64,000 bases of DNA from Escherichia coli. GTDB taxonomy: Bacteria; Pseudomonadota; Gammaproteobacteria; Enterobacterales; Enterobacteriaceae. Location: assembly GCF_003018255.1 (NCBI RefSeq), contig NZ_CP027440.1, one strand, 5' to 3'. The number at the start of each line of letters is the position of its first letter. The stretch's first letter is position 1. The notes beneath the pieces are model-generated. The model saw nothing but the letters and a program-made list of their open reading frames with translations, was not told the DNA's origin and searched no databases. This document shows positions 39,157 through 43,314 of this stretch, in pieces. A program made the translations under genes and the position numbers.

Positions 39157-40059
39157 GTGAAAATTGCCATATTGTCCCGGGATGGAACGCTCTATTCGTG
39201 TAAGCGGCTGCGTGAAGCCGCTATACAGCGCGGTCACCTGGTTGAAATTCTTGATCCGCTTTCTTGCTACATGAACATAAATCCTGCGGCGTCTTCTATT
39301 CACTACAAAGGCCGCAAGTTACCCCATTTTGATGCTGTGATCCCGCGTATTGGTACCGCCATTACCTTTTATGGGACGGCGGCACTGCGCCAGTTCGAGA
39401 TGCTGGGGAGCTATCCGCTCAATGAGTCGGTCGCCATTGCCCGGGCGCGTGACAAATTGCGTTCCATGCAACTGCTGGCGCGTCAGGGCATCGACCTGCC
39501 TGTCACGGGCATTGCGCATTCGCCGGATGATACCAGCGATTTAATCGACATGGTCGGTGGTGCGCCGCTGGTGGTCAAGCTGGTTGAAGGCACGCAGGGA
39601 ATTGGTGTCGTGCTGGCGGAGACGCGCCAGGCGGCGGAAAGCGTGATTGACGCTTTCCGCGGTCTGAACGCGCATATTCTGGTGCAGGAATATATCAAAG
39701 AGGCGCAAGGGTGCGATATCCGCTGTCTGGTTGTTGGCGATGAAGTGGTCGCTGCGATTGAACGGCGGGCGAAAGAGGGCGATTTTCGTTCCAATTTGCA
39801 TCGTGGCGGCGCGGCAAGCGTCGCCAGTATCACACCACAGGAGCGTGAAATCGCGATAAAAGCCGCGCGAACGATGGCGCTGGACGTTGCTGGTGTGGAT
39901 ATTCTGCGTGCTAATCGCGGGCCATTGGTGATGGAGGTGAATGCGTCGCCGGGGCTGGAAGGAATAGAAAAAACCACCGGTATCGACATCGCGGGTAAAA
40001 TGATCCGCTGGATCGAACGCCACGCTACGACGGAATATTGCCTGAAAACGGGTGGTTAG
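39157..40059 (+). CDS. rimK: Ribosomal protein S6 glutamate ligase (ATP-grasp)
   Basis: 300-aa ATP-grasp ORF. Confidence 0.9.
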
Positions 40060-40146
40060 TCGCAATCACATTACTGATCATGGTTTTGCCTGCGCTTTTT
40101 GCGTAAGCTGTGCCGGTCTTTTTATCGAAAGAGGTTGTACAAAATT

Positions 40147-40623
40147 ATGACATCGCTGGTCGTTCCTGGTCTGGATACGCTGCGTCAATGGCTCGATGAC
40201 CTGGGGATGAGTTTTTTTGAATGTGATAACTGTCAGGCTCTGCATCTGCCCCATATGCAGAATTTCGACGGTGTCTTTGATGCCAAAATCGATCTGATCG
40301 ATAACACGATCCTGTTTTCTGCCATGGCGGAAGTCCGACCTTCAGCCGTATTGCCGCTGGCGGCGGATTTATCTGCCATCAATGCCAGTTCGCTGACCGT
40401 GAAAGCATTTCTTGATATGCAGGATGATAATCTGCCAAAGCTGGTGGTTTGCCAGTCTTTATCCGTTATGCAGGGCGTAACCTATGAGCAGTTTGCATGG
40501 TTCGTGCGTCAGAGCGAAGAGCAGATTTCGATGGTCATTCTTGAAGCTAATGCCCATCAACTGCTGTTACCGACTGACGATGAAGGGCAAAACAACGTTA
40601 CCGAAAACTATTTCCTCCACTGA
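40147..40623 (+). CDS. ybjN: Conserved protein YbjN
   Basis: ATG giving MTSLVVPGLDTLRQWLDDLG (158 aa); the ORF track start at 40099 is an upstream extension. Confidence 0.8.
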   Translation: MTSLVVPGLDTLRQWLDDLGMSFFECDNCQALHLPHMQNFDGVFDAKIDLIDNTILFSAMAEVRPSAVLPLAADLSAINASSLTVKAFLDMQDDNLPKLVVCQSLSVMQGVTYEQFAWFVRQSEEQISMVILEANAHQLLLPTDDEGQNNVTENYFLH

Positions 40624-40973
40624 TAACTCCTTTCGAGTACGCAGTCGCTGCCGCAGTGACTGCGTGCTGCAAAATTATCTGCTATTCTTAACCTTTTCTT
40701 AAAGATTATTTCACTTCTCTTGTGCCGATTTGGCTTTATCACATAGAGCAAATACGCATAAAAATTTGTTAAATACCGTTTTTTAATCCGAGCTATAGTC
40801 TCAAACCCTGGCTAAAGTTATTCTTGCGATGCTTTTATATAGCGAGCAGTGCTGGCCGGGAGAGAGTTCTCTTTTCTTACACCGCGCCGATAAAAAATAT
40901 GCACGTTTATTGCATATCTTTCAGTGTGACAACTTTTGTTCGTTTGTTAACGAACTTTCAGAAGGAAAGAGAT

Positions 40974-42086
40974 ATGACCGCCTTAAATAAAAAATGGCTA
41001 TCGGGTCTGGTTACGGGTGCTCTGATGGCCGTCTCTGTCGGCACGCTCGCGGCTGAACAAAAAACACTTCACATTTATAACTGGTCTGATTATATCGCCC
41101 CGGACACGGTGGCCAATTTTGAAAAAGAAACCGGTATTAAAGTCGTCTACGATGTTTTCGACTCTAACGAAGTACTGGAAGGCAAATTAATGGCGGGTAG
41201 CACCGGCTTTGACCTGGTGGTGCCGTCAGCAAGCTTTCTTGAACGCCAGTTGACTGCGGGAGTTTTCCAGCCGCTGGACAAAAGCAAATTGCCGGAGTGG
41301 AAGAATCTCGATCCGGAGCTGCTGAAGTTAGTTGCCAAACACGATCCCGACAATAAATTTGCTATGCCCTATATGTGGGCGACGACCGGGATTGGCTATA
41401 ACGTTGATAAAGTTAAAGCGGTGCTGGGCGAAAACGCGCCCGTCGATAGCTGGGACTTGATCCTCAAGCCTGAAAATCTGGAAAAACTGAAAAGCTGCGG
41501 CGTCTCTTTCCTTGATGCACCGGAAGAAGTGTTTGCTACCGTGCTGAATTATCTCGGTAAAGATCCCAACAGCACTAAAGCAGATGATTACACCGGACCG
41601 GCAACCGATCTGCTGTTAAAGCTGCGCCCGAACATTCGTTATTTCCATTCATCTCAATACATTAACGACCTGGCAAACGGCGATATCTGCGTCGCTATTG
41701 GCTGGGCGGGCGATGTCTGGCAGGCGTCAAACCGCGCGAAGGAAGCGAAGAATGGCGTTAATGTCTCGTTCTCGATTCCGAAAGAAGGGGCGATGGCGTT
41801 CTTTGATGTCTTCGCCATGCCTGCGGATGCCAAAAATAAAGACGAAGCCTATCAGTTCCTGAATTACCTGCTGCGCCCGGATGTGGTGGCGCATATTTCC
41901 GACCATGTGTTCTATGCTAACGCCAATAAAGCAGCTACGCCGCTGGTGAGTGCGGAAGTCCGTGATAACCCGGGTATTTACCCGCCTGCGGATGTTCGTG
42001 CGAAGCTGTTCACTCTGAAAGTACAGGATCCGAAAATCGACCGTGTGCGCACCCGCGCGTGGACCAAAGTGAAGAGCGGAAAATAA
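40974..42086 (+). CDS. potF: Putrescine ABC transporter periplasmic binding protein
   Basis: ATG with GGAAAGAG Shine-Dalgarno giving MTALNKKWLSGLVTGALMAVSVGTLA (signal peptide); the ORF track start at 40824 is an extension. Confidence 0.9.
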   Translation: MTALNKKWLSGLVTGALMAVSVGTLAAEQKTLHIYNWSDYIAPDTVANFEKETGIKVVYDVFDSNEVLEGKLMAGSTGFDLVVPSASFLERQLTAGVFQPLDKSKLPEWKNLDPELLKLVAKHDPDNKFAMPYMWATTGIGYNVDKVKAVLGENAPVDSWDLILKPENLEKLKSCGVSFLDAPEEVFATVLNYLGKDPNSTKADDYTGPATDLLLKLRPNIRYFHSSQYINDLANGDICVAIGWAGDVWQASNRAKEAKNGVNVSFSIPKEGAMAFFDVFAMPADAKNKDEAYQFLNYLLRPDVVAHISDHVFYANANKAATPLVSAEVRDNPGIYPPADVRAKLFTLKVQDPKIDRVRTRAWTKVKSGK

Positions 42087-42180
42087 TCCGCAGTCGTAGA
42101 TGCCGGACGGGCGCACCACGCCCGCCGGCAATTCGCACCATTATGGTGCGCTTGCACACATTCAATGCCGGAGAGCAGCC

Positions 42181-43314
42181 GTGAATGACGCTATCCCTCG
42201 CCCGCAGGCGAAAACCCGTAAGGTGCTGACGCCGCTATTAGAAATCCGTAATCTGACTAAATCTTACGATGGTCAGCATGCGGTCGATGATGTCAGCCTG
42301 ACCATCTATAAAGGCGAAATCTTCGCGCTGCTGGGCGCATCCGGCTGTGGCAAGTCCACGCTGCTGCGTATGCTGGCAGGTTTCGAACAACCTTCTGCCG
42401 GACAGATAATGCTTGATGGCGTCGATTTGTCACAGGTTCCGCCTTACCTGCGCCCCATAAATATGATGTTTCAGTCTTACGCGCTGTTTCCGCATATGAC
42501 CGTGGAACAGAACATCGCTTTTGGCCTGAAACAGGACAAACTACCGAAAGCGGAAATTGCCAGCCGGGTCAATGAGATGCTCGGGCTGGTGCATATGCAG
42601 GAGTTCGCCAAACGCAAACCGCATCAGCTTTCCGGCGGTCAGCGACAGCGTGTGGCACTGGCCCGAAGCCTTGCCAAGCGCCCGAAACTATTACTGCTCG
42701 ATGAGCCTATGGGCGCGCTGGATAAAAAGCTGCGTGACCGGATGCAGCTTGAAGTGGTGGATATTCTGGAGCGTGTCGGTGTGACTTGTGTGATGGTCAC
42801 CCACGATCAGGAAGAGGCGATGACCATGGCGGGGCGTATCGCCATTATGAATCGAGGGAAATTTGTCCAGATTGGCGAACCGGAAGAGATCTACGAGCAT
42901 CCGACCACTCGCTACAGCGCCGAATTTATTGGCTCGGTTAATGTCTTTGAAGGTGTACTCAAAGAGCGTCAGGAAGATGGTCTGGTGCTTTATTCGCCGG
43001 GGCTGGTGCATCCACTGAAAGTCGATGTAGATGCTTCGGTGGTCGATAATGTGCCGGTGCATGTGGCGCTGCGCCCGGAAAAAATCATGCTTTGCGAGGA
43101 ACCTCCCGCTGACGGTTTTAACTTTGCGGTAGGTGAGGTGATGCACATTGCCTATCTCGGCGATCTTTCGGTGTATCACGTTCGTCTCAAGAGCGGACAG
43201 ATGATCAGCGCTCAGCTACAAAACGCTCATCGATATCGCAAAGGGTTACCAACCTGGGGCGACGAAGTGCGTTTGTGCTGGGAAGTGGACAGCTGTGTGG
43301 TGCTGACGGTTTAA
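42181..43314 (+). CDS. potG: Putrescine ABC transporter ATPase
   Basis: GTG start; Walker A GASGCGKST; ABC signature LSGGQ. Confidence 0.85.
   Translation: MNDAIPRPQAKTRKVLTPLLEIRNLTKSYDGQHAVDDVSLTIYKGEIFALLGASGCGKSTLLRMLAGFEQPSAGQIMLDGVDLSQVPPYLRPINMMFQSYALFPHMTVEQNIAFGLKQDKLPKAEIASRVNEMLGLVHMQEFAKRKPHQLSGGQRQRVALARSLAKRPKLLLLDEPMGALDKKLRDRMQLEVVDILERVGVTCVMVTHDQEEAMTMAGRIAIMNRGKFVQIGEPEEIYEHPTTRYSAEFIGSVNVFEGVLKERQEDGLVLYSPGLVHPLKVDVDASVVDNVPVHVALRPEKIMLCEEPPADGFNFAVGEVMHIAYLGDLSVYHVRLKSGQMISAQLQNAHRYRKGLPTWGDEVRLCWEVDSCVVLTV

Follow-up and report, generated by a model that had tools for sequence, protein, structure and literature searches.

The ompA 5' hairpins belong to the stem-loops that stabilise or insulate a 5' UTR, and structured elements also act as obstacles to RNase E scanning; the classical 5' stabilisers lie within 2-4 nt of the 5' end. 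In classical experiments, NtrC sites that were moved far from glnAp2 still activated that promoter. The region upstream of potF in E. coli can be compared with both of these systems and with the sigma-54 promoters of the Ntr regulon (glnAp2, glnHp2, glnK). Like the Ntr promoters, it carries a site of the form YGCAYG-N4-TTGCA at fixed spacing, which is occupied by sigma-54 in vivo and belongs to an operon that is induced by nitrogen depletion and has a consensus NtrC site. Unlike them, the potF site has TG for the hallmark GG in its -24 element and is bound weakly in vivo, and the only good NtrC site of the operon lies about 1.2 kb downstream instead of 100-150 bp upstream. A high-quality NtrC site far from the sigma-54 promoter that it would serve recalls the displaced glnAp2 enhancers, but at potF the site would naturally be placed far downstream, and a gSELEX study assigns it to a separate 'potG promoter'. 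A second element of the potF region, palindrome 2, resembles the ompA-type stem-loops in that it is short, is found in a short 5' UTR just 5' of an accessible Shine-Dalgarno (SD) sequence, and shows compensatory substitutions rather than sequence identity. It differs from those stabilisers in starting about 13 nt from the predicted 5' end and in its conserved loop sequence.

The window analysed here is the whole stretch of 64,000 nucleotides. It represents E. coli chromosome, as 401 bases around the palindromes are 100% identical in several complete E. coli genomes, and the annotation of these identical chromosomes together with our own translation gives ybjN and potF as the flanking genes. 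The ybjN coding sequence ends at 40623, leaving a ybjN-potF spacer of 350 nt with 39% G+C. Relative to K-12 the spacer carries ten substitutions, none of them from 40865 to the potF ATG. Because it is collinear with K-12, published K-12 coordinates could be transferred directly to the window (the potF ATG at window position 40974 is 893007 in U00096.2 and 893784 in U00096.3). The principal features of the region are as follows.

40631 to 40673, plus strand: hairpin of the ybjN terminator, a 21-nt inverted repeat with a mapped 3' end close by
40685 to 40716, minus strand: published ArcA binding site with three direct-repeat elements (Park 2013 supplement, potF1 site, U00096.2 892718-892749)
40897 to 40917, no strand assigned: palindrome 1, ATATGCA-N7-TGCATAT, with arms at 40897-40903 and 40911-40917 and a 7-nt spacer
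40938 to 40955, plus strand: palindrome 2, GUUCGUU-UGUU-AACGAAC, with the arms GTTCGTT (40938-40944) and AACGAAC (40949-40955) and a 4-nt loop
40962 to 40966, plus strand: SD AAGGA, read from the sequence, 7 nt upstream of the ATG
40974 to 42086, plus strand: potF coding sequence, 370 aa, putrescine-binding periplasmic protein (translation and annotation of identical E. coli sequences)

The ybjN terminator hairpin sets the upstream bound on any potF leader, and a mapped 3' end assigned to ybjN, U00096.3 893482, corresponds to about 40672 in the window (Adams et al. 2021, PMC7815308). The ArcA site is far 5' of both palindromes, more than 180 bp upstream. In EcoCyc, Lrp and ArgR sites lying close together are annotated at the potF promoter. 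At the potF SD, the sequence AGAAGGA is kept across genera in the leader alignment.

Both inverted repeats had been pointed out in an earlier note on this DNA, and they are present with the sequences and coordinates that it gave, including the 18 nt between palindrome 2 and the potF ATG. Palindrome 1 can be extended to 11-nt arms (40893-40903 and 40911-40921) with 91% complementarity. By sequence statistics only, the palindromes are unremarkable. Perfect 7-nt inverted repeats with loops of 3-10 nt occur 0.27 times per dinucleotide-preserving shuffle of the 350-nt spacer, with a probability of 0.19 for at least one repeat and 0.06 for at least two, and the 64-kb window contains on average 0.45 such repeats per 350 nt. 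Because repeats of this kind are frequent by chance, the case for function rests on conservation and on published binding data, not on the palindromes as such. The best joint explanation, considered probable here, is that palindrome 1 is the core of a sigma-54 promoter and that palindrome 2 is a leader RNA stem-loop with a structural role.

The sigma-54 promoter of potF has its -24/-12 core in palindrome 1, which is already a published sigma-54 site. The promoter and its start are placed as follows.

40898 to 40914, plus strand: sigma-54 promoter core TATGCACGTTTATTGCA, with the -24 element ATGCAC at 40899-40904 and the -12 element TTGCA at 40910-40914
40925, plus strand: predicted sigma-54 start, 19 bp downstream of the motif centre by the rule of Bonocora 2015, 49 nt from potF and giving a 49-nt leader

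The 17-mer TATGCACGTTTATTGCA is letter-for-letter identical to motif OS08 from sigma-54 ChIP-seq, which is on the plus strand, was assigned to potF (start predicted 49 nt 5' of the gene), and lies with its centre 5 bp from that of the ChIP-seq peak (Bonocora et al. 2015, PMC4591121). The OS08 signal is weak, with a fold above threshold of 2 and a PSSM score of 6.8, the latter falling inside the range of 4.9-13 covered by the bound sites of the same table (PMC4591121). The ybjN-potF spacer is also the genome's strongest peak for the RpoN holoenzyme in gSELEX, in vitro (PMC8743547); the coordinate of this peak, about 300 bp upstream of the sigma-54 motif, is a point against the assignment. On nitrogen depletion, potG mRNA increased 6.0-fold and potI mRNA 3.2-fold, which the authors attribute to RpoN and NtrC (PMC8743547). 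In EcoCyc, the potF sigma-54 promoter has the status predicted only.

The site agrees with the consensus TGGCACG-N4-TTGCA at 10 of 12 positions and with the obligatory spacing exactly, and a consensus scan of 40000-41000 found no other plus-strand match of such quality. Thus, the bipartite -24 (TGGCAC) and -12 (TTGCW) elements are found at their invariant spacing, the first G of the GG being replaced by T. Conservation was assessed in the potF loci of 80 Enterobacterales species. The pattern ATGCAY-N5-NNGCA is retained at fixed spacing in 54 of 55 Enterobacteriaceae-type loci, 74-124 nt 5' of the ATG. Among 47 distinct sequences, the unforced positions track the sigma-54 consensus, with Y at 40904 in all 47, G at 40905 in 42, and T at 40910, 40911 and 40915 in 43, 46 and 47, respectively; these conserved positions are asymmetric about the dyad of palindrome 1. 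The outer palindrome pairs are complementary in just 26 and 32 of the 47 sequences, and no compensation is seen. The T that replaces the first G of the hallmark GG is itself invariant (47/47 distinct Enterobacteriaceae sequences), which fits the weak ChIP signal. The dyad symmetry is an incidental by-product, because the self-complementary TGCA, which is part of the -12 element of every such promoter, here sits in the -24 element too, the latter reading ATGCAC and not TGGCAC. Readers of raw sequence should expect an operator-like look of sigma-54 promoters that have TGCA in both elements; beyond explaining the palindromic look of a published site, palindrome 1 offers nothing new.

According to the proposed mechanism, sigma-54 RNA polymerase would bind TATGCACG-N4-TTGCA as a closed complex, which an ATP-dependent activator would open (under nitrogen limitation, most likely NtrC), and potF transcription would then be initiated at about 40925. 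The earlier note had suggested an operator or a leader structure. Of this, a protein-binding DNA site stands for palindrome 1, although for the RNA polymerase holoenzyme and not for a repressor. A leader structure has to be given up for the sigma-54 transcript, as palindrome 1 lies upstream of its start and is absent from it.

The alternative that dimeric factors use either palindrome, or both, as a DNA operator, with a repressor overlapping the promoter at palindrome 1 or an elongation block at palindrome 2, is quite unlikely. Both are perfect 7-bp dyads at fixed spacing, several factors bind the potF control region (Lrp, ArcA, ArgR), and expression responds to putrescine. In addition, ATGCA-N7-TGCAT is loosely similar to the point where two ARG boxes join, and the invariant non-consensus T at 40900 could mark a second, overlapping site. 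On the other hand, the mapped ArcA site is distant from both palindromes, the conservation of palindrome 1 is asymmetric and sigma-54-like with its outer pairs often broken, and the half-sites of palindrome 2 change with pairing kept, as described below. Symmetric conservation of half-sites was found for neither palindrome. ARG-box matches in the window occur at chance frequency, and the only hits in the spacer all carry three mismatches, so that ARG boxes were rejected; the text of the ArgR ChIP-exo paper does not mention potF. A possible ArcA box in palindrome 2 was likewise discarded, since TGTTAA is a perfect half-element but its partner at the required 11-bp spacing is missing. Palindrome 1 was also considered as an NtrC site and rejected, the spacing of TGCA-N7-TGCA being wrong for TGCACC-N5-GGTGCA. 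A second sigma-54 promoter in the spacer at TGGCTAAAGTTATTCTTGC was dismissed by hand and by scan, as its GG and GC doublets are 16 nt apart and 12 are required.

A consensus scan of the ybjN-potF spacer revealed no NtrC-like site scoring at least 10. The best match to the NtrC consensus within the 64-kb window is instead found between potF and potG.

42134 to 42150, no strand assigned: NtrC-consensus site CGCACCATTATGGTGCG, matching 12 of 14 consensus positions, in the potF-potG spacer

This site is about 1.2 kb downstream of the sigma-54 promoter. Almost every locus with the sigma-54 motif has it, and it is absent from the families without the motif; given this co-occurrence, CGCACCATTATGGTGCG would supply the binding site for the enhancer-binding protein that a sigma-54 promoter requires. 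A gSELEX peak of NtrC at 894130 and a gel shift coincide with CGCACCATTATGGTGCG and were read by the authors as a potG promoter (PMC8743547). No sigma-54 motif placed for local use of the site was seen by eye in its flank. CGCACCATTATGGTGCG may be a naturally downstream enhancer for the potF sigma-54 promoter.

The extent of the potF leader depends on where transcription starts. Besides the predicted sigma-54 start, one mapped start is available.

40831, plus strand: mapped potF start giving a 143-nt leader (Kim 2012 supplement, TSS 892864 on the plus strand, 18 reads)

This start is reported as U00096.2 892864 with a 5' UTR of 143 nt and the upstream sequence ...GTTATTCTTGCGATG (Kim et al. 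2012, PMC3415461). TATTCT at 40819-40824 is its putative -10 element, and an 80-nt block with very strong conservation between genera has 40831 at its end. In published start data it is the sole mapped start, and no mapped 5' end was found near 40925, nor any start mapped in nitrogen-limited cells. The leader of roughly 350 nt assumed in the earlier note is not upheld, as 350 nt is the length of the spacer, the 3' end of ybjN is at about 40672, and the leaders measure 49 nt (predicted) or 143 nt (mapped). Palindrome 2 is inside both transcripts, and palindrome 1 is transcribed only from 40831. The reading frame of potF is open back to 40824 with an in-frame ATG at 40899. An N-terminally extended PotF or a leader peptide was rejected, because the distance between the motif and the ATG varies among genera (74, 75 or 76 nt), and the interval is thus not coding.

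For palindrome 2, the comparison of leaders points to a conserved plus-strand RNA stem-loop of 5-7 bp in the potF 5' UTR. It is located 3' of both starts and 5' of the ATG at 40974, at approximately +14 to +31 of the predicted sigma-54 transcript, and ends 6 nt before the SD. In E. coli, the centroid structure predicted for the leader is this hairpin (-7.5 kcal/mol); the fold of this single leader is equal in stability to its shuffles (z = -0.02). In a covariation alignment of 43 Enterobacteriaceae leaders, aligned on sequence alone, the seven pairs of palindrome 2 are formed in 88.8% of cells, compared with 22-47% when the 3' partners are slid by one to three columns. Among distinct sequences, pair 23:36 is U-A in 18, C-G in 12 and U-G in 6, and pair 22:37 is U-A in 20, U-G in 13 and C-G in 2. 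If the two columns were independent, the pair counts would predict about 6 cells with the forbidden combination C-A at pair 23:36, and there are none. In the three lowest pairs, transition-type departures from Watson-Crick pairing amount to 20 cells with G·U and none with A·C. The presence of G·U without A·C argues for a helix in plus-strand RNA and not for a DNA palindrome read by a dimer.

Compensatory as well as wobble changes were thus found on the transcribed strand, three pairs being changed on both sides. The half-sites vary with pairing kept, as GTTCG, GTCCG, GCCCG and GTCCA on the 5' side versus CGAAC, CGAGC, CGGGC and CGGAC on the 3' side, and the lower stem is recovered by RNAalifold. 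As few as two or three separate events in these related genomes may account for the compensatory changes. Many species have lost the two uppermost pairs, the 5' side being variable opposite the nearly invariant TGTTAACG, and in many species the element consists of a 5-bp stem and an 8-nt loop with conserved loop sequence. In leaders of the 'GTTAAC' type, the hairpin is found at a constant 6-7 nt upstream of AAGGA. The leaders of Siccibacter, Cedecea, Buttiauxella, Mangrovibacter, Yersiniaceae and Pectobacteriaceae could not be aligned and have a different hairpin in the same place. Over 50 species, the leader segment that begins at the predicted start and stops just short of the SD is in most cases more stably folded than shuffled versions of itself, with a mean z of -1.22 and a coding-region control at +0.37. 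Of the two suggestions in the earlier note, a leader RNA structure is therefore retained for palindrome 2, given the covariation, the G·U changes and the position next to the ribosome-binding site in both leaders, and an operator is not. Conservation analysis and structure prediction, which the note had proposed, were carried out: across enterobacterial potF regions, the sigma-54 motif is kept in 54 Enterobacteriaceae loci and the lower stem of palindrome 2 across genera, and structure prediction returned palindrome 2 both as the centroid hairpin in E. coli and, for its lower stem, in the RNAalifold consensus.

It is hardly likely that palindrome 2 is a functionless chance repeat, its conservation reflecting slow divergence beside the ribosome-binding site. 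Such repeats are common in shuffles, the fold of the E. coli leader is of ordinary stability, and the sequences compared are related, a circumstance to which the shuffle control is blind. However, the first 13 nt of the sigma-54 leader are poorly conserved and the hairpin block is conserved, C-A is missing at pair 23:36 where independent columns would have produced it, and different hairpins occupy the same place in independent clades.

Two further candidates for palindrome 2 were rejected. As an intrinsic terminator or attenuator it has few G-C pairs and three U residues after the stem, and a terminator scan was blank, finding no terminator-like site in 40550-41050. An extension of the helix into the SD (CUUUU/AGAAG) is kept trivially as a U-run facing the purine-rich SD, with no informative covariation. 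After the stem, E. coli has UUUCAG, and most genera have AUUGAG or GUUGAG. A covariance-model search against Rfam 15 found no family, the hits being eukaryotic snoRNA and lncRNA models at chance level (E >= 0.35, far below gathering thresholds).

On the basis of folding predictions, palindrome 2 may act in cis as a structural element, keeping the ribosome-binding site accessible and impeding decay, a role that is proposed tentatively and at well below an even chance. The hairpin would lock the U-rich leader in a compact form and so bar its pairing with the purine-rich ribosome-binding site. It would also hinder 5'-end-dependent attack by RNase E, and both effects together would set the stability and the translation efficiency of potF mRNA. 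In silico, the SD is unpaired with a probability of 0.055 in the wild type and of 0.015 or 0.008 in mutants with one arm disrupted, in which the leader becomes free to pair with it. With some 13 nt between the predicted 5' end and the hairpin, the latter lies too deep for a direct block of RNase E binding to that end.

The loop and the 3' arm, UGUUAACG, are conserved beyond structural need, and this excess hints at sequence-specific recognition, which the stabiliser idea leaves unexplained. Palindrome 2 might then be a docking site for a trans-acting sRNA or RNA-binding protein that reads the loop UGUUAA and controls translation or decay, maybe as polyamine feedback; this is regarded as unlikely, with real scope for such a partner nevertheless given by the conserved loop. 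TGTTAACG, comprising the loop and the top of the 3' arm, is near-invariant across genera and the 5' arm facing it varies. The expression data can be read in the same direction, as potFGHI mRNA increases in E. coli when putrescine synthesis is blocked, and in Dickeya putrescine made by SpeA inhibits potF expression. However, literature searches on the potF leader (sRNA/Hfq, GcvB, Term-seq) gave nothing relevant for enterobacteria and thus no reported sRNA or protein partner, an Rfam match is absent, and the genera with an alternative hairpin do not have the UGUUAA loop. If the hairpin or its loop acts in putrescine feedback, it would provide a simple, testable entry into polyamine homeostasis; if palindrome 2 is a stabiliser and nothing else, it is routine. 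In either case it is a conserved, apparently undescribed stem-loop of an ordinary 5'-UTR kind beside the ribosome-binding site of the main putrescine uptake operon, and a modest addition.

The long leader contains an additional element.

40867 to 40878, plus strand: pyrimidine tract UUCUCUUUUCUU, complementary to the potF SD region and present in the long transcript only

In the fold of the long transcript, this tract can form an 11-bp duplex with the SD region, and the probability that the SD is unpaired is about 0. The energy of the duplex relative to shuffles has a z of -3.7 in E. coli and a mean z of -1.37 over 50 species, the excess being missing in many genera. An anti-Shine-Dalgarno role of the tract is a lead; together with the NtrC site and the hairpin upstream of the promoter, the tract suggests that the choice of start site may influence how well potF can be translated.

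The earlier note's idea can be rephrased for the mapped sigma-70 transcript, such that palindrome 2, or both palindromes, would constitute an attenuator or translational switch in the 143-nt leader. As the start at 40831 is mapped, both palindromes are transcribed from it, and the minimum-energy fold of the long leader contains both hairpins and exceeds its shuffles in stability (z = -2.07). This fold buries the SD, for which the short transcript gives an unpaired probability of 0.055, and leader hairpins rich in G+C with UUUU after them are present in some other genera. Yet the SD is occluded by the pyrimidine tract and not by the palindromes, and whatever supports pairing in palindrome 1 is already imposed by the promoter elements. 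For the reasons given above, palindrome 2 does not resemble a terminator, its 3' flank is AUUGAG or GUUGAG in most genera, and no 3' ends inside the potF leader are reported (Adams et al. 2021, PMC7815308). A switch of this kind is judged quite unlikely.

A wider view would treat the potF control region as a two-promoter device, in which RNA started at 40831 is silent or attenuated, sigma-54 RNA is translated, and NtrC fires from 1.2 kb downstream. Transcripts from 40831 would carry the tract that pairs with the SD, and in some genera a terminator-like hairpin, and would be silenced or attenuated by these. The sigma-54 start would lie downstream of the tract, with palindrome 2 keeping the remaining U-rich leader off the SD and so permitting translation. 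NtrC, bound at the natural enhancer in the potF-potG spacer, would fire the sigma-54 promoter. As a speculative extension, putrescine feedback on potF might act at the conserved UGUUAA loop. The device as a whole is unlikely, in contrast to the joint reading of a sigma-54 promoter core and a structural leader stem-loop.

For the hairpin upstream of the promoter, RNAalifold gave no consensus structure on the sequence-based alignment, and the folding z is weak (mean -0.42). In Klebsiella spallanzanii and Pluralibacter gergoviae, the two loci scanned, a terminator-like hairpin followed by a U-tract is present in this same upstream region, and the folds of other loci contain hairpins similar to it.

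The best-scoring match to the NtrC consensus across the 64-kb window is located upstream of potG, which starts at 42181:

42134-42150, potF-potG spacer: NtrC-consensus site CGCACCATTATGGTGCG, matching 12 of 14 consensus positions

A published NtrC gSELEX peak coincides with this site and was interpreted in that study as the 'potG promoter' (PMC8743547). Because inspection by eye revealed no sigma-54 motif placed for local use of the site, it may be a natural enhancer for the potF promoter, which lies 1.2 kb upstream of it. Across the Enterobacteriaceae loci the NtrC site goes together with the potF sigma-54 motif, and the Yersiniaceae and Pectobacteriaceae loci, which are without the spacer site, are likewise without that motif.

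The potF leaders of Yersiniaceae and Pectobacteriaceae carry a separate conserved inverted repeat, TTGTATC-(4-11 nt)-GATACAA, about 40-62 nt upstream of potF (loci L044-L058, L061, L063-L067, L069, L072 and L079 of the 80-species set). In this repeat 90.6% of cells are paired, the loop varies in length, and there are three compensatory changes, each in a single sequence. The sole Enterobacteriaceae-type locus that does not have the standard sigma-54 motif comes from Yokenella regensburgei:

Yokenella regensburgei (L008), beginning of potF some 20-45 nt further on: ATATGCATTTATTGCATA

Here the TGCA cores are 2 nt nearer to each other than in the standard motif and lie much closer to the start codon. 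Sigma-54 should not be able to recognise cores at this spacing.

Further upstream in the E. coli window, a second region stands out by its cross-genus conservation:

40756-40832: 80-nt conserved block TGCATAAAAAATTGATAAAAGGCGTTTTTTAATCTGGGCTATAGCC...CTGGCTACAGTTATTCTTGCGA

Conservation of this block is far above that of palindrome 1, the -24/-12 core of the potF sigma-54 promoter, and of palindrome 2, the leader RNA hairpin. Its downstream end is the mapped potF start at 40831, and it includes a minus-strand IHF-like core, which reads TATCAATTTTTTA in most genera, as well as the palindrome GGCTATAGCC. Since several genera have large insertions immediately downstream of it, the block is a separable module.

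Transcripts from the mapped start have a 143-nt leader, which contains a candidate partner of the potF Shine-Dalgarno (SD) region:

40867-40878, upstream of the sigma-54 promoter: pyrimidine tract UUCUCUUUUCUU, predicted to pair with 40960-40972

The predicted duplex comprises 11 bp, and the predicted probability of an unpaired SD is close to 0 in the 143-nt leader, compared with 0.055 in the short transcript. E. coli, Citrobacter, Trabulsiella and Pluralibacter show tract/SD complementarity above that of shuffles; Kosakonia, Phytobacter and Enterobacter do not.

Two hairpins, one in the same stretch of leader and one at the promoter itself, score as terminator-like in two other species:

~40852-40886 (L018 1085-1103; L060 1086-1104), between the mapped start and the sigma-54 promoter: purine-arm/pyrimidine-arm hairpin
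Minus strand, L018 1144-1126; L060 1148-1126 (corresponding to 40921-40890 of the E. coli window): terminator-like reading of palindrome 1

The equivalent of the upstream hairpin scores as intrinsic-terminator-like in Klebsiella spallanzanii and Pluralibacter gergoviae (GGGAGAGG-TCC-TCTCTCC, then TTTTCTT), and the E. coli version is weak. Sequence-based alignment gave no consensus structure for this hairpin, and folding z-scores in the region average only -0.42. In the same two species, palindrome 1 together with the A-tract that precedes the -24 element gets a terminator-like score on the minus strand, the hairpin being followed by TATTTTTT or TTTTGT. Such a site could stop antisense transcription leaving potF, or its score could be a coincidence arising from the A-rich upstream flank of the promoter.

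An ARG-box-like element overlaps the published ArcA site:

40700-40713: ARG-box-like TAAAGATTATTTCA in the E. coli window

Most other genera read TAAAGAATTATTCA here, with two mismatches to the ARG-box consensus. The element may be the ArgR site that EcoCyc reportedly annotates at the potF promoter.

The potF frame is open for 50 codons 5' of the ATG (40824-40973), with an in-frame ATG at 40899 within the -24 element. A conserved coding extension was rejected, because the motif-to-ATG distance varies by 1-2 nt between genera. The ybjN terminator hairpin (40631-40673) differs from that of K-12 at five arm positions (40638, 40651, 40652, 40659 and 40665).
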